Source: Candidatus Bathyarchaeia archaeon (GTDB lineage: Archaea; Thermoproteota; Bathyarchaeia; Bathyarchaeales; Bathycorpusculaceae). From it: 30,626 nucleotides of DNA. The translations under genes were made by a program, and so were the position numbers. Under the pieces are notes generated by a model. It saw nothing but the letters and a program-made list of their open reading frames with translations, made no database searches and was not told the origin of the DNA. The stretch spans positions 1 through 30,626 of the forward strand of contig JBEKGO010000036.1 in the NCBI GenBank assembly GCA_050012755.1, written 5' to 3'. Below are positions 2,600 through 30,170 of the stretch, piece by piece. Within the stretch, counting starts at the first letter, position 1; the number at the start of each line of letters is the position of its first letter.

Positions 2600-2893
2600 T
2601 TGATGACGCTTGATGAAACAAAACGGCAACTACAAGAACTAAAACCTGTTCTCAAGAGCAAATATAATGTGGAAACAATAGCCATTTTCGGTTCATACGC
2701 CAGAAGTGGGCAAACAGCAGAAAGCGACATTGACCTTCTAATTACTTACTCAGAAGCACCTGACATTGTAGGTGTAAACAAAATTAAAAGATTTCTTAGA
2801 AGAAAACTAGGCACAAAAGTCGACATAGTTTCAAAAAAATACGTAAATCCGCTAATAAAAGAAAAAGTTCTGAAAGAAGCCATACCAGTATGA
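2600..2893 (+). CDS. Minimal nucleotidyltransferase (MNT) antitoxin
   Basis: GSYARSGQTAESDID fits the GSx10DxD motif; KVDIVS; 97 aa; ATGA overlap with a HEPN gene. Confidence 0.9.
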   Translation: MMTLDETKRQLQELKPVLKSKYNVETIAIFGSYARSGQTAESDIDLLITYSEAPDIVGVNKIKRFLRRKLGTKVDIVSKKYVNPLIKEKVLKEAIPV

Positions 2894-3255
2894 AGAAACA
2901 ACGTGATTCTTCAGATTAACAACTTTACCTCCAAGAAATCGTTTTCCACAGCAAAATAATCGAAGAATACGCAAAAGGAATGACGCTTGACCAGTTCATT
3001 CATGATCGAAAAACTGTAGACGCAGTTGATTCTAACCTTCGAAATATCGGTGAAGCCATGAATGTCTTGGCAAAAATACCTGAAATAAAATTGAAATTTT
3101 ATGAATATCGTGTACCTTGGCAGGATCTAGCAGGTTTGCGCCATTTTCTTTCACATGAATATTTCAGCAGAGACCCAGAAATTATTTGGAAAAACGCAAC
3201 TTCGCTTTTACCAAGAATTATCCCTCAAATCAAAAAAATACTAAATGAGAGCTAA
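2890..3255 (+). pseudogene. DUF86/HepT-type HEPN toxin with an in-frame TAA at codon 10
   Basis: ATG at 2890 overlaps the MNT stop and reads MKKQRDSSD*QLYLQEI..., in frame with the 2980 ORF. The RHFLSHEY (Rx4HxY) site is intact. Confidence 0.8.
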
Positions 3256-3288: not shown

Positions 3289-3642
3289 TTAAGTCTCCTC
3301 GTCTACGTTTAAGAACATCTTTATAGTCACCATGATTTCTTCCAACCCCTTCTGCGTTAGAGGCGGATCATACGGGATTCGAAGTACATCCCAGCCTTGA
3401 GCTTCCAGAAGCTCGTCAATTTCACTATCGCGTGCTAGCTGTTTGTCCTTGCGATGAACGGGATTGCCATCTAGATAAACGATTTTTCGTTTTTCAGCCC
3501 AGCAAAAGTCTGGAACTGTAGATCTTAGGATAATTGGTTTTTGTGTTATCATGCCGCTGGTTAATCCAACCATGCTTAATGTTTGGAAAACAGCCATTTC
3601 AGCGTTGCTGACTCTAGGATGCATGTTTGCTTTGTAGCTCAA
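3289..3642 (-). CDS. DUF559/Vsr-like PD-(D/E)xK endonuclease
   Basis: VPDF...IVYLDGNPVH...RD...L...GWDVLRI pattern. Confidence 0.8.
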   Translation of the reverse strand: MSYKANMHPRVSNAEMAVFQTLSMVGLTSGMITQKPIILRSTVPDFCWAEKRKIVYLDGNPVHRKDKQLARDSEIDELLEAQGWDVLRIPYDPPLTQKGLEEIMVTIKMFLNVDEET

Positions 3643-3800
3643 TTTCGGTCCACTGCCTCTAAGGCATGTTTAGACCCTTTTTAAAGAGTTGTTGAAACTA
3701 CCTCACAGAGCAGGGGAGGGCTCGGTGAAAGTGAAAAAAGAAGAATAAGTTGCAGTTGCCTATTACCCCTAAAAAATCTAATAAAAAATTAAAAGTTAAT

Positions 3801-3957
3801 GCAAGCAGTAACCAAAAGTAGGCTTGGCAGATCGCTCCTGTTAACGCAAGGCGCGAATCAAAATAGAGACCTAAATTGTCAGGTTCGGCAATTCGTGCCT
3901 CGGCTTAACCGCTGACCCGCCAAGCATGGGTGTACCTCTTGGATGGCTATTTCTCGC
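3801..3957 (-). ncRNA. Candidate ~157-nt rod-shaped non-coding RNA of unknown family
   Basis: Eight nested helices pair the 5' half with the 3' half and include nine G-U pairs that form only on the minus strand. TTTATA at 3985-3980 lies upstream and T-tracts lie directly downstream. Confidence 0.65.
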
Positions 3958-4816
3958 AAAATAACAAGACTTTGCCGAGTATAAATGGAATTGTGGTTGT
4001 GTGTCATCAACAACAAGCGCTTGGAGTGCACTAATTTGATTGAAAGAATAACTTCAACTAAAATTTTCTTGACTGGGTCAAACTCTAAACAAACTCTAAC
4101 CTAAACAAAAGCGAAAGATTACTGACCTAGCTCTAACAACAATAAAACAAGCTTACCAACTAAACCTAATAACTAACTTAACTTTAAAACCAGTACTCTA
4201 ACGCCAACTTAAATTACTCCACCAATGTACAAATAAAAAAAGAAATGAATACTTTGGATGGATAATTAGCCTTTTAGGAAATCTACAAAGCCATAATTTA
4301 GGCTATGTGTGTGATATTTTTGTCCATCCTTCCAAACTTCAACCAGTTTTCACAGCTGTAAAATTTAATCAGCTGTAATTAATTTATCAGCCGTTGCACT
4401 TGCTACATCTGTAAAAACTCATTTCCGTGAGTCATTATTTCCCTAAATGACGCATACGAAAAATTCTTCTTTTTTCTTATGGGGTCTATTTGCACCCCGA
4501 AAAAACGAAAAGAAGTCTGAAAACAAAACTAAAAGCAAAATTTGGTTTAATTGAGTTTGAATTGAAAGTTAAATACACGTCAGAATGAAAACCGCTGTTG
4601 CAAATGCAACAAGCAAACAATCCCCTTTTCTTTTTTCCATTATCACTGGGTGATAATGTTGTTTTACAACAGTGTTGTAATGTCAGTTAATTATTCAATT
4701 CCCAATTTATAGCACTTAAATAATATTAAGCGCAAGTTAACAAAATCGCAAGAGCAAAAACTAAAAGCTTTCTGAAATGATATTACGTCAGTTCTAAAGA
4801 AGGTGGAGCATACAAA

Positions 4817-5424
4817 ATGATTGACTTTTTCCAAAATGCATGTGAAGAAGAAAAGCTGACTATTAGACTCTCGCAAGAGAATTTTTCAGGGAAAGAGCTA
4901 AAACCTGAAAATAAAATTGTGACAGCCTTCCTTGCCTATAGGTTCTTGATAGCATCAAAATGTGTGTTCAACATCGGCATATCGGGATATTATTACGAGG
5001 CACAAATTTTAATGAGAAGTATGAATGAGACCGTTATCTATTGCCTTTCTTTCCAGCTATCTAACGATTGTGCGAGAAAGTGGCTTACTAATGGGCTGAA
5101 ACTTCGAGAAGCTAAACAAGTCATCAAGAACAGTTCTATAAAAATCTCTACAGAGGCGTACACCTACTTTGCGATTACGTTCACTCTAACCAACCAGCAA
5201 TAGCGAGGACTTTGGGCTTTCGAGAAAATCTTGAAATAGAATCTCCGACTGGACCACGATTCATGGAGAAAGGTTATGGATTGTTTAGGGAGTTTCGAGC
5301 TTTAAATCTGGGATTGCTGGAAGTATTGGCTGCTATTTTCGCTAACGATTTGGAAAAAAAGACTAAAGACACCCTTATAGCTTTCATATCGGAAGAGAAA
5401 AAAGAGATTCAGAACAAGTCTTAA
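4817..5424 (+). pseudogene. DUF5677-like protein split by a frameshift near 5168-5170
   Basis: AQILMRSMNE in the first ORF. A -1 shift at TACTTTGCG restores Y-F/L-CDYVHSNQPAIARTLGFRE and joins the 5212-5424 ORF. Confidence 0.6.
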
Positions 5425-5434
5425 AGAAATGAAG

Positions 5435-6382
5435 TTATTTCAAATCTTTATTTTTCATTTTTTCTTCAAAGGCTATTCCGATTTGCATGGAAATCTGGGA
5501 AAAGAGACTTAAAGACTCGATTAAGTATTCCATAGAAACTTTCAAGACTTCGTTGCCACCTTTGTATCCTGTTTTTTGTCTATAGAGCTTGTTTGGAATA
5601 CCCAAGTTATGAATGATGACATTTCGCCTGTAGAACCGCTCTTTAAAATTATGCCAATCAAAAGCTTTGGAAATATCTATTCCGAGTCTTCTCTTCGTGA
5701 ACGCCTGTATTTCTTCGATATCTTCATCCTTAAATTTTGAAATGTCTATAGAGAATTTCTTTTTGAAATACTCACGTATTACTTCTATATCCTCGTTGAC
5801 AATCATTGTTTCTTTTTCAATAATTCCCTCTTTAATCGCATTCATATCATTAAATTTCAGTAATTCTTCATAGTTTAGGTTCTTCTGACAAGTTTTAAGG
5901 GTCTCAGGCTTTTTTCTAAAAGAAATAGTGAGAACATTTTGGAGAAAATTTTCAAAAACTGCAATCAAATAAACCAAACTCATATCCCGAACAAGGTGAG
6001 AACCTTGCATCAGGTTGATACTTTCTTGCATATTTTTAAGAAATTTCTTATTTGTATTAAACTGAATTAATGGGTTTTTATAAGTACTAATTCTTCTCTT
6101 TTCATTGATTCTTTTGAAATTTTCGATAAGATTTTTTAGCCCTATACCATTTTCAGCCCACAGTTCAACATCTATTCGCTTATCCTCAGCCTCTACAAAT
6201 TTTAGAAATTCGTCATTTGTCCATTTAATAAGCCTTAACTCAGAGTCGAAGATAAAAAATGACCAAAGGTATTCGTCCTCTTCACTTACTATATCCACGT
6301 CTTTAACGTTATCATTGTCAACTTGAGCACTCATTTTAGTCGAATTTCTATATTGAATCATTGTACTTTTTAGCTTTTTCAT
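5435..6382 (-). CDS. HEPN-domain protein (RiboL-PSP/MAE_28990-like), putative RNase
   Basis: LVYLIAVFENFL helix and RRNVIIHN (Rx4H) motif; AT-rich. The true start may be the Met of MSAQVD. Confidence 0.65.
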   Translation of the reverse strand: MKKLKSTMIQYRNSTKMSAQVDNDNVKDVDIVSEEDEYLWSFFIFDSELRLIKWTNDEFLKFVEAEDKRIDVELWAENGIGLKNLIENFKRINEKRRISTYKNPLIQFNTNKKFLKNMQESINLMQGSHLVRDMSLVYLIAVFENFLQNVLTISFRKKPETLKTCQKNLNYEELLKFNDMNAIKEGIIEKETMIVNEDIEVIREYFKKKFSIDISKFKDEDIEEIQAFTKRRLGIDISKAFDWHNFKERFYRRNVIIHNLGIPNKLYRQKTGYKGGNEVLKVSMEYLIESLSLFSQISMQIGIAFEEKMKNKDLK

Positions 6383-6469
6383 GATGCAAAAGATGAAAGC
6401 TGAAATGGAAATTAGTTCAGATTCACAAGTCTTAAAACATAAACGAACTGATATTATATTGGTAGTAAA

Positions 6470-6781
6470 ATGTCTGGAACACGACAGTTAGGAATTGCCT
6501 TAATTGTTTTTGGTGCACTTCTTTTGATTGGTGCAGGTTTTGCATACACATACCAAGAAACAACAACTCAAGTTTATTATCAAGGGCTTTATCTTAACGG
6601 TCAACAAATTGTACCGCCTATGTCTCGTGACATAACGACAACGCCATATAGAGATGATAGCACTGGTTTAGTTCTTGGAGCGGTTGCCTTGTTTGTTGTA
6701 GGCTTTGCTCTCCTTGTTTATAAATCACAAAATGCTCCAGCGCCACCAGAGGAACCACAACCGAGTTTCAAATTAACCTAA
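6470..6781 (+). CDS. Two-TM membrane protein, unknown function
   Basis: Two hydrophobic helices around a polar loop; Pro-rich tail. Confidence 0.75.
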   Translation: MSGTRQLGIALIVFGALLLIGAGFAYTYQETTTQVYYQGLYLNGQQIVPPMSRDITTTPYRDDSTGLVLGAVALFVVGFALLVYKSQNAPAPPEEPQPSFKLT

Positions 6782-6939
6782 ATGTAAAAGGCACGATTTT
6801 TATTTTTTTGGGCGAATTTTTTTTCTAAAGCCCTAAAATAAAATTGCCCTGATTTATAGAATAAGCGGAGTGTGGCTTATTTTGGCTAATCAGGTCTGTA
6901 TTTAGGTAGGGGAGTTGTTTTGGAGTTATTCTGCAAATT

Positions 6940-6958
6940 GCGGAGCACTTAGCTCCGC
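6940..6958. repeat. Perfect GC-rich inverted repeat downstream of terL
   Basis: GCGGAGC-ACTTA-GCTCCGC. Confidence 0.6.
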
Positions 6959-7087
6959 TTTGCCTAACTAATTATCGAAATTTTTCGTACAAACTCGCTC
7001 AAATTTGGTTTTTCGGTCTCCTTAGCAATGGAAATTTTACAATGCCTGTTCTCTTCTAAAGCAGATTTTGGATATTAGATGGCTGAT

Positions 7088-8383
7088 TTAGCCAAAACTT
7101 GCCTTAACGAAGAAAGGGTGGTCAAATATGTTGACTTTTCTCCTTGTTTCCTCATGTTCAACGAAGAATGCCATTCTTCCTGGCGGTGGGCTGCGTTTTA
7201 GTTGCCATGCAGCTAATGCTAAAGCTATTACGCAGTCGTCATGATAGCCTTCTGGTGCTCCATACTGCAAGTTTCCGCTTGGTGTTGTTTTGTAACCGTA
7301 AAGTTTGAGTTCATTGATTAATTCAGGAATCGGTGGTATAGTGATCTGTTGGTTTTCAATCATTATGCTTAGGTTCTCGATTAAGTCTTTTTTTGTGGCG
7401 TTTGTGAATTTGTAGCCTTCAACCTGGATATTTTCTCTGTGGAGTTCATCGCAGATTGGGTCTCCGACACCTGTGCTATCAATTAGTAAGCGGGCGTTGT
7501 ACTGCTGGGCTAGTTGGACTGTGCGTTTGCGCTGGAAAACCCAATCTATCTGGTTGAACCTGTCAAAAGCACACAGATGCCCATCCAGATCCAGAACGGC
7601 AAGCACTGTGAAGTCCTCAAGCTTTGCCAGATCACTGCCCATAACATATTGCTTATGAGGGTCAGGCAGTTCGAGGGTGCCTTTGACTATGCGGTTTACA
7701 CCTCTGAAGACTGAGCCAACGTCTTCAAGAAACTCAGCTAAAACTTCTTGGCGGTAAGCGAGTTCGGGCATGTCACGGGCGAAAGAGGCAATCTCAGCAG
7801 GATCCAGATACGGATTGTTACTGCTTAGGAAGCTCCAGCTTTTGTAGTCGGTTTGCGATGGGTCTTGCCCTCGAGTCCAGAGTTGAAAATACCAGTTATG
7901 TCCTCTTGGCGTGCCTGTGAAGATGGCGATGCCTTTTTCATCCATCAGTGAAGGCCTAAGCGCCATAGTCCAGGCTTCTTCAGCAATCTGTGCACCCTCA
8001 TCAAGCCAGAGAACCTTTACGCCTTGGCTTCTTAGCGAATCAGGATTATCCGCACTCTTAAACCAGACATGGCGCTTTCCTTTGAGGATGACATGCCGAT
8101 CAGCACGATGGATTTCCTCTATTAATTCAGGTGGGCAAAAGTTGAAGAATTCGCTCCACTGGCGCTGAGTGTGCCAATAAGTCGGGGCAACAGCAAATCC
8201 TACAATGCCAATTTTTTCTTTGCCTTCGCCTTGCCGCCAAATTTGCCTTATGAACTCGTTAGCGCCTGCAACGGTTTTTCCCCAGCGACGTCCACAGTTG
8301 AGCACTCGAAACCTTGCTGGATGAAAGTGAAATTCAACTTGTCCAGGATGGGGCTTGTACTTAATTACCGCTGTTTTGTGCAG
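7088..8383 (-). CDS. terL: Terminase large subunit (probable CTG start at 8383)
   Basis: YKPHPGQ adenine-binding motif, Walker A GRRWGKT, Walker B LWLDE, coupling motif TGTP, and RNase H-like nuclease motifs MGSDLA, IDSTGVG and HDDCVIALALA. Confidence 0.92.
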   Translation of the reverse strand: MHKTAVIKYKPHPGQVEFHFHPARFRVLNCGRRWGKTVAGANEFIRQIWRQGEGKEKIGIVGFAVAPTYWHTQRQWSEFFNFCPPELIEEIHRADRHVILKGKRHVWFKSADNPDSLRSQGVKVLWLDEGAQIAEEAWTMALRPSLMDEKGIAIFTGTPRGHNWYFQLWTRGQDPSQTDYKSWSFLSSNNPYLDPAEIASFARDMPELAYRQEVLAEFLEDVGSVFRGVNRIVKGTLELPDPHKQYVMGSDLAKLEDFTVLAVLDLDGHLCAFDRFNQIDWVFQRKRTVQLAQQYNARLLIDSTGVGDPICDELHRENIQVEGYKFTNATKKDLIENLSIMIENQQITIPPIPELINELKLYGYKTTPSGNLQYGAPEGYHDDCVIALALAAWQLKRSPPPGRMAFFVEHEETRRKVNIFDHPFFVKASFG

Positions 8384-8765
8384 CTTTGGGATCCTCCCAT
8401 TTTATGTGTATTTCTTCAGGTTCTGCCTCATCTTGGATTTTAACGCCAGACATCTCAGCTAGGTCACAATTTATTTGACGCATTAGATTCAACGCTGTTA
8501 TGCGAGCCATGTCAGTTTTTGCCTGCATATATGTGACTACAGCTTTGCGGTACAGCTGCTCGTGTCTGTTACGAACTTTGAGCAGTGTCTTTTTCATCTC
8601 TTGAAGTTGAGGCTGCCAACGGCTCCGAATTTCAAAATCCTTGTATATAGCACGCTCAGTTACCCCGTATTTTGCGCTTAATTCCTTTACAATTTCACAA
8701 GGTTCCAGACCGTTTCCTTCGAGCTTTAACATTTCTAAACGTCTTTCAAACGTTGTCGTGTCCAT
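8361..8765 (-). CDS. Putative terminase small subunit (HTH plus helical region)
   Basis: Directly upstream of and overlapping terL; HTH-like EIVKELSAKYGVTERAIYKDF; GGTGA SD; C-terminal IHIKW strand. Confidence 0.7.
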   Translation of the reverse strand: MDTTTFERRLEMLKLEGNGLEPCEIVKELSAKYGVTERAIYKDFEIRSRWQPQLQEMKKTLLKVRNRHEQLYRKAVVTYMQAKTDMARITALNLMRQINCDLAEMSGVKIQDEAEPEEIHIKWEDPKAAQNSGN

Positions 8766-9247
8766 GAATTATCACCTTTAATTTTTTGGGGCGCATATTC
8801 AAGTGATACAGTAAGTCGTCCCTTACTTGCTGACTTTATGAGCCCCCGATTTATCTTTGAATCTGTTCTTCCATGTCGTCCATGCCCAACACGTTTAACA
8901 ATCCAACCATCCAAATTTCCACGAACCAGCTGCGGATTGCTCGTAACCAGATAGAACGGCAAATTCAACTGAGAAGTGTAGAGTTCAGCAACAAAATTTA
9001 GCAAACGCCTTCCGATGCCTATGCCCTGGTAATCAGGCAAAACAACGAGTCGGCTGACACGAAAAAAGTGACCTTTCATCCGTACATGCGCAACTGCGAT
9101 AAACGCTACAGGCTTTTCCTGATAGAGAGCAACGTAGCATCTGACGCCTGCTCCGAGCTTGCCGTTTAGATAGTGATACTGCCGAAACATCGTCCACATT
9201 GAAGTGCCGCACCGATAAACCTTAAGCTCAACGGGCGGCCGCTCTCT
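8735..9247 (-). CDS. GNAT (Mom-like) acyltransferase domain, probably the C-terminal part of an ATPase-GNAT fusion; first in-frame ATG at 9199
   Basis: WTMFRQYHYL and the acetyl-CoA motif SRLVVLPDYQGIGIG. The frame opens at the A7 run inside the upstream ATPase gene. Confidence 0.82.
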   Translation of the reverse strand, partial: RERPPVELKVYRCGTSMWTMFRQYHYLNGKLGAGVRCYVALYQEKPVAFIAVAHVRMKGHFFRVSRLVVLPDYQGIGIGRRLLNFVAELYTSQLNLPFYLVTSNPQLVRGNLDGWIVKRVGHGRHGRTDSKINRGLIKSASKGRLTVSLEYAPQKIKGDNSWTRQRLKDV

Positions 9248-9849
9248 TTTTTTCGGTCAAACTCCATGGTGTCAGTGCAGAAAACCCAATCAGGATCCAA
9301 CCAATCAACAACGTCGTAATGGCAGGTTACGGCTATGAATTTCTTGTCTTTCTGACGCCTGATTGCCTTGCTGATGGCGTAGGAAGCAATTTTTGCAACC
9401 TCGCGATCCACAACTGAGGTGAACTCGTCGAAGACAATCAGTTTTTTTGGAAGGCAAAGTGCTCTGGCGATGTCAACACGCATTTTTTCTCCTTGACTTA
9501 GGCAACTGTAAGATTTGAGCCAGTCTGGAGGCGAAGCAAAGCCGACGCTGCATAGAAGTCTGGTTGCTTCCTTTGTTTCTATTTCTTGGGGAAAATCATC
9601 TAGGATGCATTGATGCGTGTAGTCAAAGCCGGTAATGTAATCGTCTAAAAAGAGCTTTTTTGCTATACTTGATTTGCCTGAACCGCTGCGTCCGACAATG
9701 ATGCCTATTTGCCAGTCGTCTCCCTCAAATGGCAGTGAGCCTTTGAAATGCTTTTGTAACTTAACGTCGTTTAATGTGAAGCTGCCAACGACGCTTTGCG
9801 CTCGAAAACTCTCCGGTTTACTCCAACTCTTGACAAAATCAAAATCCAT
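9166..9849 (-). CDS. Soluble ABC-type ATPase (no permease partner)
   Basis: Walker A GRSGSGKS, signature-like LSQGE, Walker B IVFDEFTS, H-loop VTCH. Confidence 0.88.
   Translation of the reverse strand: MDFDFVKSWSKPESFRAQSVVGSFTLNDVKLQKHFKGSLPFEGDDWQIGIIVGRSGSGKSSIAKKLFLDDYITGFDYTHQCILDDFPQEIETKEATRLLCSVGFASPPDWLKSYSCLSQGEKMRVDIARALCLPKKLIVFDEFTSVVDREVAKIASYAISKAIRRQKDKKFIAVTCHYDVVDWLDPDWVFCTDTMEFDRKKESGRPLSLRFIGAALQCGRCFGSITI
9206..9265 (-). promoter_or_regulatory. Candidate -1 programmed frameshift signal
   Basis: GGAG, then 8 nt, then A_AAA_AAA (9253-9247), a 7-nt spacer and a 34-nt hairpin (9239-9206). Confidence 0.6.
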
Positions 9850-9861
9850 TTCCGCCTCTCC

Positions 9862-10428
9862 CTACAAATTCAAAACTCTCACTTTGTATCCTTCCGTTTT
9901 GAATTTCTCAAAAAAGAACATCTGCTGGGTTTCGTCTGTGCATTCGATGATTAGCTCATAGCTGTCCGGTATTATGTTTGAGTTTTCAGGTGCATGGCCA
10001 TCGGTTTCCGGTAGTGTCTCGCCAATTGACTGTAGTAGTGCTTTTAGGCAATCGCTTTTGCCTGCCTCTATAATGCGCATGTACTCGGCATCGTCAAGCT
10101 CCCTGTTATGTTTACCTTTGAGCTTGTTTAGAATCTGCCGCAGCATTCGCCTATCAACATCAGAAACTGGCAGCCGAAGAACCGGAGCAAAAAACTCGCC
10201 CTGTTCTTTGCAAACCTGCGCTCTCTGTTCACCATCAGCGAAGACGCCCTCTTTGTTGGTTATGATTGGGTAGGTCCACCCGTACTTTTGGAGGCTACGC
10301 CAAACTTGTTCTTTCTGTTTGATTGCCATTTTGTTTGGGTTGTTTTCGTCACTTTTTAGAAGCCGAAGATCTTCAAGCAGGGGCAAGTAAGCATCTGGGA
10401 CAATGATGTTTGTTTTCTTTTCAGCCAA
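9862..10428 (-). CDS. ParB/Srx N-terminal-domain protein (start reassigned to TTG 10428)
   Basis: NNPNKM...SLQKYGWTYPII...ADGEQR pattern. GGTGA SD at 10437-10433. The longer start overlaps the divergent gene. Confidence 0.8.
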   Translation of the reverse strand: MAEKKTNIIVPDAYLPLLEDLRLLKSDENNPNKMAIKQKEQVWRSLQKYGWTYPIITNKEGVFADGEQRAQVCKEQGEFFAPVLRLPVSDVDRRMLRQILNKLKGKHNRELDDAEYMRIIEAGKSDCLKALLQSIGETLPETDGHAPENSNIIPDSYELIIECTDETQQMFFFEKFKTEGYKVRVLNL

Positions 10429-10473
10429 TTTATCACCAAAACTTAAGAGGGCTGTTGTTTGGTATAGATTGCA

Positions 10474-11211
10474 TTGGTGTATGATTTGGGTACCAATGGG
10501 CACGGAATCCAAAAACTGGATGTTTACGAAAAAGCTGTTTTAGATTTGCTTAATTTTGGACCTAAGCAGAGGAAATGGCTTGTAGAGCAGTTATGCACAA
10601 AGATTATGTCGAAGAGGAAACTGCAGGGGACTCTCAACAGCTTGGAAGATGCTGGAAAAATCAAAAAAGTCTATCGGAGCATCGATGATAGACAGACGAC
10701 GTGGTACGTTTTGCCTGAGCAGGAGTATCTTCTAAATGTCGATGAGGGAAGGATGCTGTCGGCGATGGATCGTTTGAAGAAGTTTCTTTTTCGTCCCGCA
10801 ACCGTCGATGAGCTTGCGGTTGAAACTGGTGTTACACCTGCAGTTGCTGAGAAGTTGGCTTACAAGTTGGCAGTGCAAGCTGGATGGTTTAATCCTTCGC
10901 CAGAGCTCATTGCCCATGCACGGGAAAAGCTTGGGGAAGTTTTGGTGTGCGCAGCAAGAATTAAACAAAACGTGTTTTCTGACGCCGACTTGAACCATAT
11001 TTATAGAAATGACCTGGAAATCATAGATGAGGCAAAACGGTTTTTGAATGAGCATCCTGAAATGATTCCCAGCCTTAAACCCGATGAGTACTTTCATCCG
11101 GTGGCTTGGTGTTTATCTTGGCCAGATGAAGCCCTAAAATACCTTGGAAGCCCCCATAAACCAAAAACTCGCCCCATCCCCGGCGTCGGTGTCCGTTTCA
11201 TCCAACATTAA
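10474..11211 (+). CDS. Winged-HTH protein divergent from the terminase operon, possible regulator
   Basis: N-terminal wHTH-like AVLDLL...LQGTLNSLEDAGKIKK...WYVL and a second HTH-like TVDELAVETGVTP. Exact start uncertain. Confidence 0.6.
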   Translation: MVYDLGTNGHGIQKLDVYEKAVLDLLNFGPKQRKWLVEQLCTKIMSKRKLQGTLNSLEDAGKIKKVYRSIDDRQTTWYVLPEQEYLLNVDEGRMLSAMDRLKKFLFRPATVDELAVETGVTPAVAEKLAYKLAVQAGWFNPSPELIAHAREKLGEVLVCAARIKQNVFSDADLNHIYRNDLEIIDEAKRFLNEHPEMIPSLKPDEYFHPVAWCLSWPDEALKYLGSPHKPKTRPIPGVGVRFIQH

Positions 11212-11326
11212 ACAACTTCGACTATCTCCCAGAAAGCTAGAAGCAGGGAATAAACAAAACAGAACCAGCCTTCAGCCTTAGCAGTTTTTTGCTGCTATCT
11301 TCTTCACTCATTGTTTATGTCTGTTT

Positions 11327-11389
11327 TCATATTTGTTGATTGACTGCCTTGACTATGTCTTCAATGTAATCAATGAACTCTTTTGTCAT
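11327..11389 (-). pseudogene. 5' fragment of a HEPN toxin (20 codons)
   Basis: MTKEFIDYIEDIVKAVN matches the start of 13260-13607 (MTKEFIDYVEDIIKAMN), then diverges and stops. Confidence 0.85.
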
Positions 11390-11684
11390 ATGGTTACAAC
11401 TTCTTCTAAAACATGTTTTCCAATTCTGGGTTTAAGGGTTCCTTTCTCTACCAAGTCGACTTTGACGCCTAAAATGTCAGTAAGGTAGTTCTCTAGTCCT
11501 ATAAAATCCAATAAACTTAGTTTAGATAACTCTTCAAACTCAACTAAGATATCAATATCGCTTTTTTTCTTTTGTTCTCCTCTTACGTAGGAACCAAAAA
11601 TGCCAATGTCTTTGACTTGATAATTCTTCTTTAGCTCTTGCTTATGTTTGCTTAACATTTTTTTATTTGGTCGATAGTTATCAT
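11386..11684 (-). pseudogene. MNT antitoxin paralogue with a 1-nt deletion in an A-run (may restart at ATG 11658)
   Basis: Near-identical protein to 13604-13903; 299 nt versus 300 nt, with A7 at 11664-11658 versus A8 in the paralogue. Confidence 0.8.
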
Positions 11685-11782
11685 TGATTTTCACTTTATT
11701 ATTTGCTCTTGAAAAGTTAAGGTTTGCTCTTGGGAATTGTGGTGCAAGGCACTCAAGAAATCTTCTAAAATCATCTGTGACG

Positions 11783-11831
11783 TTCTGCGGTTCTATGAAG
11801 AAGCAGAGAAAAACAAAGAAACACGCAACTT
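11783..11831. repeat. 49-bp repeat family R1, copy A
   Basis: TTCTGCGGTTCTATGAAGAAGCAGAGAAAAACAAAGAAACACGCAACTT; 4 mismatches to copy C. Confidence 0.9.
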
Positions 11832-11888
11832 CCACTAACTTAGCCTTTCGCAGATTAACTCGGAATTTTTTGGAATGATAGAATTTTA

Positions 11889-13052
11889 TTAAGTTTGCGA
11901 TGAAGGCAGGGCTAAAGGTTTTGCGATTTGATTAGTTGAGGTTTTTCGATGCCTTCTATAAATTAACAGAACAATACTCAGGACAACAACTACCGCTATA
12001 AGTGCAATTATTAAAACTTGTTCGTCAACAGCTATCATGGTCCGAGTTGAAGTTGGGCTTGGAGAAAGAAGTTGCAAAAGTGACAAAGAAGGCATAGCTG
12101 ATCCATTAAATGGAATACTTAGCGGATGATAATCGTAATATACAGCTTGCCCAGAATCGCTAGCAATTATGGCATATGGTTGGCTTCCGTTTCCTGTGTA
12201 GTCACTCCAGTAGTTTCCTACTGTCGAATTATCCCAAGTATTGATCCCATTGCTGGGTTCTGCGTTGCTCTGTAGAGAAACTTGAATTGAGTTATTGATA
12301 AAATTATTATTGTAAAAATAACCATTTGTGGAACTTTCCAGCTCTATTCCCCATTTGTTGTAGGCAAAAGTGTTGCCAGAAACTGTAGTGCCGTCACATG
12401 CATCGAGATATAATCCAAAATTACCCGTAACATTACCAAAGTAATTGTCAGCGATAACAGTGTTGATTTGATTAGTTAATTCTTCGCCTCCACCTAAAAA
12501 GACGTTCAACGTTATATTGTTGTCTTCGCCGTTTGCACCTCCAATATTAGTTCCTACCAATAAGTTTGCGAGAAAAATACTGCTAGATGCACCGTCAAGT
12601 GAAATCCCTGTTCCACCAATTTTAGTTAGTGTGTTGTTGTCGATTCTAATATCCTCCCTTGCACCGTCAATTTTTATTCCATCAGATTCTTCAATTGGTT
12701 CTGTTAGAACATGCGTGTTTGTTAGGGTGAAGCCTTGGATTAAGACATGGCTGGCGTTAACGTTAATGATGGTGTTGTATCCTCCGTTGCCATCTATGAT
12801 GGTTGAAGCTTGTCCTTCGCCAATAAGCGATATGGGTTTATTGATAACTAAGGTTTCCTTATACAGCCCATGCTTAACTAAAACTGTATCGCTGGCGTTT
12901 GCATGGTTTATAGCTCCTTGAATAGTTGAGTATTGGTCAGGAACAACGAAAGTTCGGGTTTGGGCTTTTACAACAACGTGTGGTAATAGAACTAAAGAGA
13001 TTAAGCAAATTAGAACAAACAATAAACCCAGAGCTTTGCTTCTTCTACTCAT
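11889..13052 (-). CDS. Cell-surface right-handed beta-helix (NosD/CASH-like) protein with signal peptide and C-terminal TM anchor
   Basis: VVPDQYSTIQGAIN, Asn-ladder repeats, YNNNFINN, GNYWSDY, then a TM helix and RRHRK tail. Confidence 0.85.
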   Translation of the reverse strand: MSRRSKALGLLFVLICLISLVLLPHVVVKAQTRTFVVPDQYSTIQGAINHANASDTVLVKHGLYKETLVINKPISLIGEGQASTIIDGNGGYNTIINVNASHVLIQGFTLTNTHVLTEPIEESDGIKIDGAREDIRIDNNTLTKIGGTGISLDGASSSIFLANLLVGTNIGGANGEDNNITLNVFLGGGEELTNQINTVIADNYFGNVTGNFGLYLDACDGTTVSGNTFAYNKWGIELESSTNGYFYNNNFINNSIQVSLQSNAEPSNGINTWDNSTVGNYWSDYTGNGSQPYAIIASDSGQAVYYDYHPLSIPFNGSAMPSLSLLQLLSPSPTSTRTMIAVDEQVLIIALIAVVVVLSIVLLIYRRHRKTSTNQIAKPLALPSSQT

Positions 13053-13088
13053 ACAGGTTATACCAACTTTAAAGTGATAAAAGGGTAT

Positions 13089-13132
13089 TCGTAAAAGTCT
13101 CTTGACTGAATTTTAGTCAAGGTTTGTTTACT
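13089..13132. repeat. Hairpin repeat family R2, copy 1
   Basis: TC GTAAA AGTCT CTTGACT GAATTTT AGTCAAG GTTTG TTTAC T, ending 37 bp upstream of the ATG at 13052. Confidence 0.9.
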
Positions 13133-13185
13133 TAATAGAAACTCATTGAAAGTAAGGCTGTATTTCTTTACTTTGTTGGAAATTG

Positions 13186-13259
13186 TGATGCAGTCGCTGA
13201 GATTTGAACCAGGGTCGTCAGCGTGGCAGGCATGTCCTAGACCGAACTATACTGCGACC
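13186..13259 (-). pseudogene. Degenerate tRNA-Gly(GCC)
   Basis: GGTCG CA GTAT AGTTCGGTCTA GGAC AT GC CT GCC AC GC TGA CGAC CCTGG TTCAAAT CTCAG CGACTGC ATCA. The first two bases are lost, the anticodon stem is shortened, the T-stem is mispaired and CCA has become TCA. Confidence 0.8.
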
Positions 13260-13607
13260 TTATTTTTCCTTGTTTTCTTCAAGCATTTTTTCAAACAGAG
13301 GTTCTAAAGCAGGTAAATCATTATTAACCGTATTCCAGACCCTTTTAAGATCGACTCCAAAATACTCATGAATGACCTTATCTCTCATTCCAGCCATCTT
13401 CTTCCATGGTATTTGGCTATAATCGGCTTTGATTGAAGAGGGCACTTTTTTAGTTGCTTCTCCAATGATCTCCAAAGCTCGGATGACAGCATACGTGGTT
13501 TTTGTATCCTTGACGAAAATCTCGTAATCCATGTTTTTAACAAAGCCTAACGCATCATTCATGGCCTTGATTATGTCCTCAACGTAATCGATGAATTCTT
13601 TTGTCAT
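13260..13607 (-). CDS. DUF86/HepT-type HEPN toxin (intact)
   Basis: AVIRALEIIGEA, IPWKKMAGMRDKVIHEYFGVD (Rx4HxY). Confidence 0.92.
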   Translation of the reverse strand: MTKEFIDYVEDIIKAMNDALGFVKNMDYEIFVKDTKTTYAVIRALEIIGEATKKVPSSIKADYSQIPWKKMAGMRDKVIHEYFGVDLKRVWNTVNNDLPALEPLFEKMLEENKEK

Positions 13608-13903
13608 ACCGTTACAACTTCTTCTAAAACATGCTTTCCAATTCTGGGTTTAAGAGTTCCTTTTTCCACCAAATCAACTTTAACGCCTAAAATGTCTGTA
13701 AGATAATTCTCTAATCCAATAAAATCCAGCAAGCTTAGTTTAGAAGATTCTTCAAATTCGACCAAAATGTCAACATCACTTTTTTTCTTCTGTTCTCCCC
13801 TTACGTAGGAACCAAAAATGCCAATGTCTCTTACCTGATAATTCTGCTTTAGTTCTTGCTTATGTTTGCTCAAAGTTTTTTTTATTTGGTCGATTGTTAT
13901 CAT
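13604..13903 (-). CDS. MNT antitoxin (intact)
   Basis: GSYVRGEQKKKSDVD; ATGA overlap with the HEPN gene. Confidence 0.92.
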   Translation of the reverse strand: MITIDQIKKTLSKHKQELKQNYQVRDIGIFGSYVRGEQKKKSDVDILVEFEESSKLSLLDFIGLENYLTDILGVKVDLVEKGTLKPRIGKHVLEEVVTV

Positions 13904-14007
13904 TGGTTTTCAATTAATAATCTCCGATTGAAAAGTTAAGGTTTACTCCTCAAAAAATTTTGTGGGAGATGCAGTGCGAATTCTCAAAACCTTTAAGATC
14001 ATCCAAT

Positions 14008-14056
14008 TTCTGCGCTTCTATGAAGAAGCAGAGAAACGCAAAGAAACCCGCAAATT
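14008..14056. repeat. 49-bp repeat family R1, copy B
   Basis: TTCTGCGCTTCTATGAAGAAGCAGAGAAACGCAAAGAAACCCGCAAATT; 3 mismatches to copy C. Confidence 0.9.
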
Positions 14057-14117
14057 TACTAAACTTCCTTTCTTAATAATCTCTGTTCTGGTTTCCATTT
14101 CCTTCATTTTCGTTTGT

Positions 14118-14333
14118 CTAAAACAATGAAGTTTGCGATCTCTTCTTATACCTAAAGAAAACTACTGAAACGACAATTACGACGAAAATAACTACTCCAA
14201 TTACAATGATTAGAGTGTTCGATAATGCAGGTGAAGAACTCAAAGCCCCCAATGCATAATCTCTATCGTCATATGATCCAAAGTAAACGACTCCGTTGAC
14301 AACAGTAAGAGACGAAACAATACCGAAATAAGT
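14118..14333 (-). pseudogene. Orphan 3' fragment of a PQQ-repeat surface protein (absent from the ORF track)
   Basis: Reads TYFGIVSSLTVVNGVVYFGSYDDRDYALG...TLIIVIGVVIFVVIVVSVVFFRYKKRSQTSLF*: last propeller blade, TM helix and basic tail. Confidence 0.8.
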
Positions 14334-14423
14334 CCGTTCAAAAGTTGGACACCGTGAAAGTAATATGTTCTACACCTTGGCCTTAATAATAACGTTCATC
14401 CATCTTTGCTTTGTGATCTTCAG

Positions 14424-15068
14424 ATGCAAAAAGGAATTAGGAAACACGCATGGCTTTACGTAATAGTGACAGTTCTAATCGCTGTAATGTTGGTTTCGCT
14501 TTACTATCAATTTGGCTACCTGCCTCAGAGGCAAAATGGGACCTCTCCCCAGGAACTTGTTGGTCCACTTGGGGGGCAAAATGGGACGTATTCCCAGGGA
14601 ACCCTTGGTTCAACTGGGAGTCCTAACATCGTTGAGGGCCCCAACATCTTCGCGACATTGTCTTTTTCGAATGCGACGGGTTTCGTGACGACCGTCCATC
14701 CTACTTCGGGAACGATTGAATTTGTTCTGCTCCCGAACAGCGTGGGTGAATTTACGGTTACGTACACGGGAATCGGCTTCAACAATTTGACTGTTCCGAT
14801 ATTCAATCCAGTTTTTGGAAATCCCGTTGGCGTGTTAAATGTTTTGTCGAATGGCACGCTTGGAACTGGCTCAGGATTGAGTGTAACTGAATCAGGTGTG
14901 ACATGGGTGAGCTATTATCAAGTGGCTGTTAACTACGCTGTCACTTCTGGAGGGTCAGATGGGTTATACGTGGTTGGATTGCCTTCAACGTGTCTCAGCA
15001 CCATTGTTGATGTTGGAACTCAACCCTACACTGGGTCTCTAACATGGCTTGACGGAATTATTTATTAG
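14424..15068 (+). CDS. N-terminally anchored Gly/Ser/Thr-rich surface protein (ORF track starts it at TTG 14406)
   Basis: One N-terminal TM helix followed by a beta-rich polar domain with several NxS/T sequons. Confidence 0.7.
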   Translation: MQKGIRKHAWLYVIVTVLIAVMLVSLYYQFGYLPQRQNGTSPQELVGPLGGQNGTYSQGTLGSTGSPNIVEGPNIFATLSFSNATGFVTTVHPTSGTIEFVLLPNSVGEFTVTYTGIGFNNLTVPIFNPVFGNPVGVLNVLSNGTLGTGSGLSVTESGVTWVSYYQVAVNYAVTSGGSDGLYVVGLPSTCLSTIVDVGTQPYTGSLTWLDGIIY

Positions 15069-15100
15069 CGCACGCTGAGTGTTACTCAGGGACCAAAAAC

Positions 15101-15149
15101 ACTCAAACAACTCAGAATTTTTTTTTGAGTGACACATCCTTGTTTGAGT
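15101..15149. terminator. Inverted repeat with T-tract between convergent genes
   Basis: ACTCAAACAA (15101-15110) and TTGTTTGAGT (15140-15149) enclose a T-run. Confidence 0.5.
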
Positions 15150-15156
15150 TTGCGAT

Positions 15157-16521
15157 TTAATTATTTCGCTTGTGTTTCTTGAAATAAACCAATAATCCAG
15201 TTGACGCCATAAGGATTAGCAATATTGGAATTGTCAGTGGTGGAAACTCTGGAACGGAAGGGGTAGGCGAAGGCGAGGGTGATGTGGTTTGCGAGGGAGT
15301 TGAAGTTAGGCTAGGCGAAGGCGTCTGGGTAGATGGAACACCGAAGGCATAGACTTGGCCGTCTCCAGAGCTTATGTACAGTACATTGCCTGCAATTACA
15401 GGAAAAGACAAGGAGGCTTCTTGAGTACTGAAGCTCCATATGTTTTTACCTGTTGCAGCATTTAGGCCACAAAGGGTTCCCGTAGAGCCGAGGTTTTGAG
15501 GAAAGTGGTATAAATTTGAGCAGACGTAAACCATCCCGTTTGAAACTGCAAGAGAAGAGCCCACTGGAGAGCCACAAGAATAAATCCAAGTCAACGCGCC
15601 TGTGGCAGCATTTAAAGCATACACATTGCCATCAGCTGAGCCAACGTAGACTACACCGTTAGCAACTGCGGGACAAGAGACACCGCCCCCAGTCGTGTAG
15701 CTCCAGAGTTGCGCCCCGCTACTTGCATTTAAGGCGTAGACATTATCGTTTGGTGAACCCACATAGACTATGCCATCTGCGATGGCTGGAGAAGTTGGTA
15801 TAGCGACTTCTACTTTCGGGTTAGACGGATAGGCTAAAAATTTCCAGATTACCGTGCCGTCTTTAGCGTTTAGAGCGTAAACATTGCCATCGTATGAGCT
15901 TATGTAGAGAGTCCCGTTTACAAGTGCGGGAGAAGAATATACTTGGTCTCCTGTTGTATAGTTCCATATCACAGTACCAATGGTTGCATTGAGAGCATAT
16001 ACGTTGAAGTCGCCTGAACCAATGTAGACTATGCCGTTAGCAACAGAAGGAGAACCTATGCCGCCGCTGACAGTTTTGTACACCCAAGAGACAGAGCCCG
16101 TTAAGGCGTCAAAAGCATACAGATCGCCGTCTCCGTTGCCAGCATAGACAATGCCATTTGCAACTGCTGGAGCAGAAATAGAAAAACCGAAATTAACAGG
16201 CGCTCCAGTGTAGTTCCATAATAGAAGTTCATTTGCAGCATTTATGGCATACAAGTTAGTATTTCCGCCAACGTAGACTATGCCGTTTGCAACTGAAGCG
16301 GGGGACATAGATCCTGAATCAAAAGCTGCAAAGCTCCACAGACTTTGGTTAGTGAGCGGTGCCGCCGAAGTCGAGTATCCAGTATGTGACAAGTCATGCT
16401 GAAACATAGGCCAGTCATCTGAAGCAGAGTTAGCGTTTGCATGGATAGGTTGGAACATAACTAAAGACGTTAAAAACGATGCAACAAGCATGAAAGCTAG
16501 AATTTTACCCCAACTGCTCAT
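15157..16521 (-). CDS. PQQ-repeat beta-propeller surface protein with PEF-CTERM sorting signal (start reassigned to ATG 16521)
   Basis: DWPMFQHDLSHTG, repeated SPAVANGIVYVGS.DGNVYALNA.TG..IW blades, a Pro/Ser/Thr linker, then VPEF, TM helix and KKHKR. Confidence 0.9.
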   Translation of the reverse strand: MSSWGKILAFMLVASFLTSLVMFQPIHANANSASDDWPMFQHDLSHTGYSTSAAPLTNQSLWSFAAFDSGSMSPASVANGIVYVGGNTNLYAINAANELLLWNYTGAPVNFGFSISAPAVANGIVYAGNGDGDLYAFDALTGSVSWVYKTVSGGIGSPSVANGIVYIGSGDFNVYALNATIGTVIWNYTTGDQVYSSPALVNGTLYISSYDGNVYALNAKDGTVIWKFLAYPSNPKVEVAIPTSPAIADGIVYVGSPNDNVYALNASSGAQLWSYTTGGGVSCPAVANGVVYVGSADGNVYALNAATGALTWIYSCGSPVGSSLAVSNGMVYVCSNLYHFPQNLGSTGTLCGLNAATGKNIWSFSTQEASLSFPVIAGNVLYISSGDGQVYAFGVPSTQTPSPSLTSTPSQTTSPSPSPTPSVPEFPPLTIPILLILMASTGLLVYFKKHKRNN

Positions 16522-16556
16522 AGTTAGTCTTAGAACTGGTTTTGTTATAAGGCTTC

Positions 16557-16599
16557 TCGTAAAGGTCTCTTGACTAGGTTTAGTCAAGGTTTGTTTACT
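16557..16599. repeat. Hairpin repeat family R2, copy 2
   Basis: TC GTAAA GGTCT CTTGACT AGGTTT AGTCAAG GTTTG TTTAC T, ending 36 bp upstream of the ATG at 16521. Confidence 0.9.
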
Positions 16600-16704
16600 A
16601 TTTTTTGATTGAAATGTTCTGAGTTCGCGCCATTCCCCCGCAAATTCTTTATATCAGAGTTTAACCTTAGTAATCTTGTAGTACTTTGAAGTTGATGTTG
16701 AACC

Positions 16705-16932
16705 ATGGATTCACAAGTGACCCGTAAGGGACAGGTAACCGTTCCTGTTGAGCTAAGACGAAAATACAGCATAAGTCAAGGTGTGAAAGTATTCTTCGAA
16801 GACTCTCCAGCAGGGATTGTTCTTAAGGTCATTCCTCGATTTCAAGACTTAATCGGCGCTGACGCTGACAAGGTGGACTTGGACCAAACCTTGAAAAAAT
16901 TGGATAAGATGCGGTCAGAAGATAGGTACTAA
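16705..16932 (+). CDS. AbrB/SpoVT-family antitoxin
   Basis: VTRKGQVTVPVELRRKY motif; overlaps a PIN gene. Confidence 0.9.
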   Translation: MDSQVTRKGQVTVPVELRRKYSISQGVKVFFEDSPAGIVLKVIPRFQDLIGADADKVDLDQTLKKLDKMRSEDRY

Positions 16933-17336
16933 TGAAAGTAGTGCTGGATACTCGGTTCTTCATCACTAGTCTTGAAAGCAAAGATACTGAGTTCAGGAAA
17001 TGGTCAAAGTCGATGCTGGATTATCTTGAAAGGAAACCAAATTTTGGCATTGTTCCTTCTATTGTGATCCTTGAGCTGTATAAAATTCAGTTGGAAACTT
17101 TTGGCAAAGATGTTGCGGAAATTAGAGTTAATTCTGTTCTCGAATTAAGGTTAGAGGTTGTAAATCTTGATACTACTATCGCAATCGAGGCTGCAAAATT
17201 GCGATGCAAATATGCAGAGTTGCCGACCGCTGATGCTATAATAGCTGCCACCGCAATCAAAATGTCGGCAGACTGCGTTCTAACAGACGATAAACACTTA
17301 AATCAAATTAGGGAAACAAAAACAAAGTGGATTTAG
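16932..17336 (+). CDS. vapC: VapC/PIN-domain toxin
   Basis: VVLDT, E helix, ADAIIAATA and LTDD acidic residues. Confidence 0.9.
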   Translation: MKVVLDTRFFITSLESKDTEFRKWSKSMLDYLERKPNFGIVPSIVILELYKIQLETFGKDVAEIRVNSVLELRLEVVNLDTTIAIEAAKLRCKYAELPTADAIIAATAIKMSADCVLTDDKHLNQIRETKTKWI

Positions 17337-17377
17337 AAGAAAGAACATCATTAAGTCCTATGACAGATTGCACCTGC

Positions 17378-17426
17378 TTCTGCGCTTCTATGAAGAAGCA
17401 GAGAAACGTAAAGAAACACGCAACTT
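17378..17426. repeat. 49-bp repeat family R1, copy C
   Basis: TTCTGCGCTTCTATGAAGAAGCAGAGAAACGTAAAGAAACACGCAACTT, 42 bp after the vapC stop. Confidence 0.9.
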
Positions 17427-17805
17427 CTAAGTAGCTTTGGTCTTTCGCTAAGCACTGAGAATTTTTTTGAGAGATGCATCAAACAAGTAGTTTCGTCTTT
17501 CGATGCCCGCTATAGCGGCAACTGCTAAGGCGGTCGCTGGGGTTCTTATGGGTTTTATCTGAGCTCGCCGTTGCTCAACATGAAAAAAGTTCAAATTATT
17601 CCCGCGGCAACATTGAAACAGTTCAAAAACTCTAACCTATAAACGCCATTTTCATGCAGCATCTACAATTTCAAGCCCAATCAAAGCATAGTTTCATTGA
17701 AAATAACCCTGATTTTTGAACCTGCAAGTTCAATTTAACATCAAATTTTCGACGTGAATTATAAAGTGACGCAATAATCAAAAGATAATAAAAAATAAGA
17801 AAGAA

Positions 17806-20562: not shown

Positions 20563-20661
20563 ATCGAAGTCACTTCGTTTAAAATCTCTAAGTAACTTTT
20601 AATTTGCTGGGTAATTAAGTTTCTGTTAGCTGATTTTCCAGCTTCTGACTAATGTTTACGC

Positions 20662-27637: not shown

Positions 27638-27714
27638 TGGAGCCTCGAGCGGGCCTTGCTCCCGCGGCCTGCTGCTTACAAGGCAGCCGCTCTACTGGGC
27701 TGAGCTATCGAGGC
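27638..27714 (-). tRNA. tRNA-Thr(TGT) with encoded CCA and atypical D- and T-loops
   Basis: GCCTCGA TA GCTC AGCCCAGTA GAGC G GCTGC CT TGT AA GCAGC AGGCC GCGGG AGCAAGG CCCGC TCGAGGC TCCA; all four stems are fully Watson-Crick paired. Confidence 0.9.
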
Positions 27715-27889
27715 ACCCAAACTTGCCCAGATTACATCAACACATAAAACACAACCCAAATAAAAGTTACTACTAAAAGTGAGTATCTTCTTGCATTTTC
27801 AATTAATAAGTAATTCAATATTCCAAATCCTGGAAACACCACAGTATATTTATACTTTAGACAAAGCGGATATAGTTGAGTGCAAAGGA

Positions 27890-29134: not shown

Positions 29135-29159
29135 ATCATAACTTCAAACAGGTAATCCA

Positions 29160-29852: not shown

Positions 29853-30162
29853 TCTATTTAGCATAAGTAAGCAAATTGAAAGGTGGTATCGCAGCCAAAA
29901 ATTGTTTATTTCTTCTCTAAATGAATTTTAACAAACAAAACCTCGCTGGAAGTACCAATTAAGATACCAAGCTTGGTTTATGTCACATATTTGCCGTCAA
30001 ACTTATATGGATTAAACTCACTTTAGATTTACTTCTCGATTTAATTCGGAAAATCCCATAGCTGATTTAAGACGTGAAATATCATGAATCAAAAAGCCTC
30101 AAAAATAATATAATATGCAACAAACCATCTTTCAAGAAACCTTATTACGGCTCGACATAATG

Positions 30163-30170
30163 CTTATATC
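30163..30170 (+). promoter_or_regulatory. Candidate TATA box for the 23S rRNA transcript
   Basis: CTTATATC precedes a structured leader; similar boxes occur near 30002 and 30141. Confidence 0.4.

Follow-up and report, generated by a model that had tools for sequence, protein, structure and literature searches.

The RNA gene and its predicted fold

The window, i.e., the whole stretch of DNA that was analysed (30,626 nucleotides of contig JBEKGO010000036.1 from a Candidatus Bathyarchaeia archaeon), carries on its minus strand, at positions 3801-3957, what is very probably a real, independently transcribed structured RNA gene, as far as fold, promoter and homologues can tell. A preliminary description had proposed that an unannotated RNA, rod-shaped and specific to this strand, is made here from an archaeal promoter of its own, and the present results support that proposal. 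The features of the locus are listed below in the direction of transcription.

3991-4016, minus strand: 26-bp palindromic operator (putative), TTGTnnnTGn-N6-nCAnnnACAA, separated by 5 nt from the TATA box downstream of it
3980-3985, minus strand: TATA box of the RNA gene, at least 95% conserved in 85 aligned loci
3806-3957, minus strand: structured RNA gene (predicted), A-type member of its family, with a fold z of -3.87 and 158.2 bits to covariance model R1
3927-3957, minus strand: nearly invariant 5' segment GCGAG AAAUAGCCAUCCAAGAGGUACACCCA, columns invariant or at least 90% conserved in 93 sequences
3822-3925, minus strand: covarying hairpin with a 12-bp stem (GCUUGGCGGGUC/GAUCUGCCAAGC), three more stems, an internal loop rich in U and an apical hairpin that varies
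3809-3820, minus strand: conserved 3' strand of the basal helices, UACUUUUGGUUA, columns C142-T150 at least 90% conserved
3716-3801 (approximate), minus strand: about 85 nt of additional spacer separating the RNA from the DUF559 promoter, specific to this genome and a gap in the majority consensus of 85 loci
3771-3797, minus strand: T-runs (T4, T6, T6), candidate termination signals read from the sequence
3678-3685, minus strand: second TATA-like box, TTTAAAAA, putative DUF559 promoter, which aligns with TTTATTAA, conserved in relatives
3289-3642, minus strand: gene for a DUF559 protein of 117 aa (Vsr-like endonuclease fold; PF04480, E 1.2e-07)

Folded with ViennaRNA, the minus strand from 3957 to 3801 forms one long hairpin with a minimum free energy (MFE) of -59.1 kcal/mol, compared with -43.87 +/- 3.94 kcal/mol for dinucleotide shuffles (z = -3.87), none of 200 shuffles equalling it, whereas the plus strand of the same positions yields -44 kcal/mol (z -0.21), for which 78 of 200 shuffles were equally good. 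The eight helices named in the preliminary description are all present in the MFE fold, which comprises 57 pairs, 10 of them G-U (nine according to that description). The largest internal loops are an asymmetric one of 7 nt opposite 1 nt and a distal loop beside the apical hairpin, the others measuring 1-4 nt. The nearly invariant segment 3927-3957 contributes the 5' strands of the two basal helices together with their bulges, of which UCCAA and CACCCA are unpaired in the predicted fold, and the conserved 3' strand at 3809-3820 pairs with 3933-3949.

Regarding the ends of the RNA, the 5' end is probably G3957, the first paired G; the motif TTTATA at 3985-3980 was confirmed 23 nt ahead of it. 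The 3' end is uncertain and may lie anywhere between about 3813 and 3783, so that the RNA would be about 150 nt in length (roughly 145-175 nt). T-tracts behind the last helix, another element of the earlier proposal, do occur here (3794-3791, 3788-3783 and 3776-3771), but their position is not conserved: a run of five or more T within 45 nt of the 3' anchor was found in just 37 of 86 anchorable homologues, so that the 3' end is not fixed, and in 46 of the 86 such a terminator run is absent within 100 nt. The outermost helix, GCGAG/CUUGC, folds in the window RNA, yet it is possible in only 13 of the 86 anchorable homologues and is therefore not to be counted as a conserved part of the rod.

A small protein as the product was considered and rejected. 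No conserved reading frame was found through the invariant block, the frames being 12-136 codons long with 84 different continuations in 92 sequences, and a start codon ahead of the block is missing in 14 of the 92. In the genome of the window, positions 1395-1414 of contig C46 share 18/20 nt in the same sense with the invariant 5' segment; this match, which is possibly due to chance (E 1.5 in this genome), lies inside an ORF, and both stretches read ...REIAIQE... in translation.

A search of the whole window against Rfam at the gathering score returned only a part of the archaeal LSU rRNA and one tRNA (tRNA-Thr according to ARAGORN). When 3650-4150 was scanned with cmscan at E<=10, no family was found at the RNA, and the sole match was a chance one to snR50 on the plus strand (17.4 bits, E 5.7, 4029-4124); nothing relevant was found at E<=1 at four loci of diverged members. 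The missing Rfam match agrees with the earlier impression that the RNA is not a tRNA, 5S, SRP, C/D or H/ACA guide RNA. Genes for Archaea_SRP (C47, 111.4 bits), RNaseP_arch (C25, 186.2 bits) and 5S rRNA (C27 and C34) were found above the cut-offs on other contigs of the genome, and the RNA is thereby excluded as its sole SRP, RNase P or 5S RNA. Archaeal H/ACA and C/D guides are likewise stand-alone small RNAs, and H/ACA guides form hairpins with internal loops. The window RNA differs from them in that no conserved ACA follows the basal stem (the 3' tail is CUACUUUUnGUUAC, then variable sequence), no kink-turn GA/AG pairs were seen by eye on both strands, and no UGAUGA occurs in the RNA, with a single CUGA in the apical hairpin, whereas C/D guides carry a C box (RUGAUGA) and a D box (CUGA) close to their ends. 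Regarding the rRNA genes, the LSU rRNA gene starts at 30388 (Rfam gathering score), its first 239 nt (30388-30626) lying in the window; no SSU rRNA match was found in the 30 kb before it, where the only RNA gene nearby is the opposite-strand tRNA-Thr (region 27641-30626), and it is possible that the rRNA genes are not linked here.

Homologues, covariation and diverged members

Near-full-length BLAST matches were obtained in 28 of 36 congeneric genomes (E<=2.6e-16, 73-89% identity) and in none of 24 genomes of other families, the best match in the latter being one of 22 nt (E 0.0039). In the genome of the window, BLAST found one full-length copy of the locus, the remaining matches being 14-27 nt long, which argues against a miniature inverted-repeat transposable element (MITE). 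A 23-nt degenerate pattern of the invariant block, run against one genome per species of all prokaryotes, matched 92 stretches; among the 80 of these matches that were listed, nearly all were titled Bathyarchaeota or Bathyarchaeia, several were labelled Bathy6, three were named Bathycorpusculum, and three, on short contigs titled Acidoferrum, Nanoarchaeia and Limnocylindrales, look like binning errors.

In an alignment of 93 distinct sequences, the first approximately 31 nt and the 3' motif CUACUUUUnGUUAC are invariant or at least 90% conserved and the interior is variable; the UUUUGAU columns of the U-rich loop are at least 90% conserved. Folded singly, the homologues gave a median z of -3.23 in the sense direction (74/93 below -2) and of -1.34 in the antisense direction, and the sense strand was the better one in 84 of the 93. 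Many G-U intermediates occur among them, which would be A-C on the opposite strand. Both observations bear out the suggestion, made in the preliminary description from the G-U pairs of the single sequence, that selection acts on an RNA.

RNAalifold on plain MAFFT alignments recovered merely the 12-bp stem and a few pairs, and a model-guided alignment was therefore used. The covariance model, R1, was built from 13 close sequences and the ViennaRNA fold minus its outermost helix; it finds 92 of the 93 homologous loci at E<=3.3e-17, the sole miss (L091) carrying a large insertion. It also gives weak matches on the opposite strand (25-37 bits), as any hairpin would. In the alignment of the 92 homologues, 92.2% of the cells are paired versus 86.4% in shuffles, and 34 of the 52 pairs have changed on both sides versus 20.0 +/- 2.0 in shuffles, 0 of 500 of which reach 34, a significance that the shuffle test overstates because the sequences are related. 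Sliding the partners by 1-3 columns lowers the pairing to 31-46%. Helices 3-6 and 9 hold 31 of the 34 pairs changed on both sides, and helix 3 is paired in 98.4% of its cells. Within the genus, the two basal helices have no covariation at all, one basal pair being a C-A mismatch in 49 of the 92 sequences. With eight diverged members added (21 rows), 40 of the 52 pairs change on both sides (0/500 shuffles), including 6/6 pairs of basal helix 1 and 3/6 of helix 2; both alignments were fitted to R1, which biases them towards the structure.

The diverged members stem from a scan of 151 genomes of the order with R1. Strong matches were confined to the genus (8 of 11 genomes), and matches of 24-29 bits were found in the sister genus (3 of 6 genomes), in a single genome from another family and at a second site in the genome of the window; by their shared core stem sequences these are true relatives. 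The second copy in the genome of the window lies at C38:10454-10597 on the plus strand (locus L147, 1955-2098), scores 28.6 bits and has a differing 5' segment, as 5' segments differ among the subfamilies. This second RNA type is patchy (17 of 88 genomes of the genus and a few others). One genome of the sister genus carries two tandem members about 350 nt apart, each with its own palindrome and TATA box (locus L145, G163:C11:106312-106809). Members share the core stems UUGGCGGRUC.../...GAUCCGCCAA, GUUAA/UUAAC and ACGCG/CGCGU behind a palindrome and TATA box, and both features were found in the window RNA and in seven diverged copies. A core pattern of 17-18 nt, run over all genomes, gave among the matches listed mostly chance ones in bacteria. 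Six archaeal matches to the 17-nt pattern and three other loci were re-scored with R1, which yielded four family members; the pattern matches in Nitrosocosmicus and Hermodarchaeota were rejected by this re-scoring. On these sequence comparisons, the RNA is the founder of a family that is absent from Rfam, found here in uncultured soil and peat archaea (Bathyarchaeia operator-linked hairpin RNA), with limits as drawn by model R1 and BLAST.

Promoter, palindrome and gene neighbourhood

Both the TATA box and the palindrome (TTGTTG...ACAAyCACAA) are at least 95% conserved in the alignment of 85 loci, whereas the stretch of approximately 20 nt from the TATA box to the start of the RNA is variable, as would be expected of a promoter. 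The own archaeal promoter with normal spacing that had been proposed from the single sequence is in this way corroborated. The palindrome and TATA box were present upstream of 8/8 family members examined.

A regular expression for the palindrome matched 12 times in the genome of the window, both strands counted, versus 0-1 times in five shuffles. True sites with a palindrome plus a TATA box number five (window 3991-4016; C10:55957-55982; C32:4520-4545; C38:10413-10438; C38:15674-15699), and behind them lie the two hairpin RNAs and the genes for a DUF2769 protein, for a protein with a bacterial PH domain, and for a 54-aa protein with an ERCC4 nuclease gene after it. In five relatives, 3-6 palindrome matches per strand were found in each genome versus 0-1 for a reversed control pattern; the sites followed by a TATA box precede hairpin RNAs, a LEA_2 protein, a methyladenine glycosylase, a DUF5752 protein and small unnamed proteins, and in one further relative, identified by its operator match, a TFS-like zinc-ribbon protein lies behind the palindrome. 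The set of operator-linked genes differs between genomes. Since the palindrome stands ahead of genes of the repair and protection type, the set, as defined by motif search, is read as a small regulon that leans towards stress and DNA repair, and co-regulation of the RNA with stress and repair genes through the palindrome is a reading towards which the sites incline slightly.

For the gene neighbourhood, the ORFs of 121 loci were clustered. A DUF559 gene follows the RNA directly and on the same strand in 104 of the 121 loci of the genus; in the 85 aligned loci a conserved TATA box of its own sits between the RNA and the DUF559 start codon. The extra spacer of about 85 nt that separates the RNA from DUF559 in the genome of the window is associated with the three T-runs and is absent from most of the 85 relatives. 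No guide-dependent nuclease domains were found in DUF559, and PADLOC gave no match for DUF559 and two proteins of the inserted island. Outside the genus the linkage is not seen: tblastn (E<=1) found no DUF559 within 1.5 kb of six diverged-member loci, the RNAs of the sister genus lie without it between IlvC-type and NTPase/Trm1-type genes (judged by eye), and the second copy in the genome of the window has a convergent gene and no DUF559 downstream. In general, the surroundings of the diverged members differ, and no gene follows these members on the same strand. As diverged copies without DUF559 and with a convergent gene downstream mark the RNA as a unit of its own, its function is likely to be independent of the neighbouring nucleases and of the island; the linkage to DUF559 within the genus is left unexplained by a stand-alone RNA acting in trans. 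Of the earlier idea of a link to the Vsr-like gene, the constant neighbourhood within the genus has stood and its extension to the diverged members has not.

On the upstream side, a gene for a LonC-like protease is found in 83 of the 121 loci and one for a small membrane protein in 64. The LonC gene of the genome of the window lies at 18157-20598, so that about 13.5 kb are inserted between it and the RNA promoter. This insertion (4091-17639) is specific to this genome among the relatives compared; a 13-nt direct repeat (4091-4103 and 17627-17639) lies near its inferred ends, and its cargo comprises a lone terminase large subunit, a GNAT protein, an ABC-like ATPase, an MNT/HEPN pair, a NosD-like beta-helix protein, a PQQ propeller and a PIN protein, while no integrase or capsid gene was found in it. 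The RNA and its operator lie outside the insertion and its 13-bp direct repeats, and relatives free of the island carry the RNA. A link to the terminase element, as had been considered, is unsupported, since the terminase is part of this genome-specific segment, relatives having the LonC and membrane-protein genes upstream instead; one to the HEPN nuclease is likewise unsupported, given the rarity of MNT/HEPN-type neighbours (8 of 121 loci). The window itself has two MNT-HEPN (nucleotidyltransferase/HepT-like) gene sets, at 2600-3255 and 11386-13607, and the first nucleotidyltransferase (of the set at 2600-3255) matches the PADLOC candidate system PDC-S09 (E 5.7e-23).

In five peat metatranscriptome runs, drawn from as many studies, 12-15% of the words sampled from 3289-4200 were present. 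In three of the four runs compared (X1, X2 and X4), contigs of 110-191 nt match 3905-3947, i.e., the invariant block, and continue for 83-149 nt in unlike sequence towards the 3' side of the RNA; as the 30 letters shown resemble the hairpins of relatives, the contigs come from related species. The contig records from the three studies stop at 3947, and the letters directly behind this position in X2 look like an Illumina adapter. This is a weak hint of a discrete RNA end about 10 nt inside the predicted start, given that assembled contigs cannot fix start, end or strand and that contigs from RNA libraries can hold DNA. X3 had no contig on the RNA and none of the four runs had one over 3661-3877, although contigs cannot show absence.

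Possible role of the RNA

The reading that we put forward, and hold to be about evenly balanced between right and wrong, is that of a stand-alone RNA which acts in trans in a small stress regulon and is probably bound by a protein. A transcription factor binding the palindrome would control the promoter, and transcription would start about 23-28 nt after the TATA box, probably at G3957. The transcript would fold into one long imperfect hairpin whose upper two thirds appear to be kept by compensatory changes, and whose base would join a purine-rich, nearly invariant 5' strand to a 3' strand rich in U, the bulges UCCAA and CACCCA being fixed; a conserved U-rich internal loop (AUUUUUGA-like) would lie near the tip. 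Within a regulon of the stress and DNA-damage type, the RNA may then act in trans through a putative protein partner, as scaffold or sponge, that would recognise the invariant bulges and the U-rich loop. Tentatively, we see the mode of action as protein-binding rather than base-pairing; the U-rich loop resembles what we take to be an Sm-type site. Among known RNAs, Y RNA and YrlA (bound by Ro60) presumably come close in shape: at about 100-150 nt they have a basal helix, formed by the 5' and 3' ends, whose bulges are conserved, an upper part that varies and a 3' side rich in U. Protein binding is also the mode proposed for the window RNA; the sequence motifs differ, however, and no Rfam Y RNA model matched.

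The alternative in which the RNA regulates by base-pairing, the invariant 5' segment being a seed for mRNA or stable-RNA targets and the hairpin serving stability and termination, seems unlikely to us. A conserved 5' seed is a common layout of base-pairing small RNAs, and the window RNA shares with those of the Hfq type and of Methanosarcina and Haloferax a conserved 5' block, an own promoter and a hairpin with a U-run; its 5' 31 nt are the most conserved part, and the two bulges are unpaired in the fold. However, the hairpin is here about 110 nt long with covarying stems, and the 5' segment is mostly paired to the 3' strand, in pairs that covary once diverged members are included, and differs between subfamilies. 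Nor was a convincing target found: the longest perfect complements in the genome of the window are two 13-mers, which is about the number expected by chance (a rough estimate, not a shuffle test), neither of them at a start codon and one inside a frame of 167 codons. Less probable still is a structured leader or read-through driver, by which the palindrome promoter would express DUF559 under stress, with the hairpin as a 5' UTR or attenuator. The same-strand DUF559 gene directly downstream in 104/121 loci, the repair enzymes among the other palindrome-controlled genes and the 46/86 homologues without a nearby terminator run would suit it, but DUF559 has its own conserved TATA box ahead of its start codon, the sister-genus members and the second copy in the genome of the window are followed by convergent genes and not by DUF559, and in the window an extra 85 nt with three T-runs come between the two genes.

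The two functions suggested in the preliminary description appear very improbable. An RNA antitoxin or decoy for the neighbouring nuclease (DUF559/Vsr-like or HEPN), akin to type III toxin-antitoxin systems, would be in keeping with the adjoining toxin-antitoxin modules and with an order of RNA gene, T-runs and nuclease-fold gene that, we assume, resembles type III loci; ToxI-like antitoxins and HEARO or omega RNAs are likewise encoded immediately ahead of a gene with a nuclease fold. The idea is weak because type III antitoxins are arrays of direct repeats in tandem, and the RNA has no tandem repeats (Tandem Repeats Finder, 3600-4200, gave a sole 11-nt repeat, upstream at 4079-4099). In addition, a toxin gene always follows the RNA in type III systems, whereas DUF559 follows in 104 of the 121 loci and was not found beside six diverged ones; DUF559 is without a PADLOC match, MNT/HEPN neighbours are few, and the locus, far from being patchy, is single-copy with conserved synteny throughout the genus, the family also occurring without a nuclease. 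A counterpart of bacterial 6S RNA, which would mimic open promoter DNA and hold RNA polymerase, is as improbable. Bacterial 6S RNA binds the polymerase holoenzyme and serves as template for short product RNAs. Such a counterpart is suggested by size, by a long imperfect hairpin formed from 5' and 3' parts, by the stand-alone and possibly stress-linked gene, and by the TFS-like gene behind the same operator in one relative, which hints at a link to transcription stress. A large central bubble flanked by two helical arms is named as a feature of 6S RNA in PMC8876501. The likeness is unsupported because the fold of the window RNA has no such bubble and no 6S model matched, even at E<=10. The host is moreover an archaeon, and archaeal polymerase has, to our knowledge, no sigma-70 factor. 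That the locus encodes no RNA, being instead a palindrome in the DNA, a miniature transposable element or a piece of the mobile island next to it, is already largely refuted. The weak model matches on the opposite strand and the border with the 13.5-kb insertion might suggest it, but the genome has one full-length copy and one old diverged paralogue, the sense strand folds better in 84/93 homologues with frequent G-U pairs, and the RNA, outside the 13-bp repeats of the island, is kept by relatives without the island.

For the stand-alone trans-acting RNA, a more far-reaching version may be outlined, which is speculative and on present evidence doubtful: a dedicated stress regulon of Bathyarchaeia, in which a palindrome-binding factor would switch on DNA-repair and protection genes and, with them, from one to three rod-shaped RNAs that sequester or scaffold a conserved protein (e.g., a transcription, RNA-decay or Sm-like factor). 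If this were true, the RNAs of the regulon would correspond in function to 6S or Y RNAs, a class that, as far as we know, is not yet established in archaea.

Peat, soils, sediments and termite guts harbour Bathyarchaeia in abundance, and we know of no pure culture of them. No published description of regulatory RNAs, or of such an RNA, in Bathyarchaeia or Bathyarchaeota was found in titles and the opening lines of abstracts. The RNA is a candidate for a new Rfam family and would improve the annotation of about 100 genomes in which the stretch now reads as an empty intergenic region. With a covariation-supported non-coding RNA family, a defined promoter and operator, and a small set of putatively co-controlled genes, the locus offers a concrete handle on gene regulation in Bathyarchaeia, one that existing metatranscriptomes can test.
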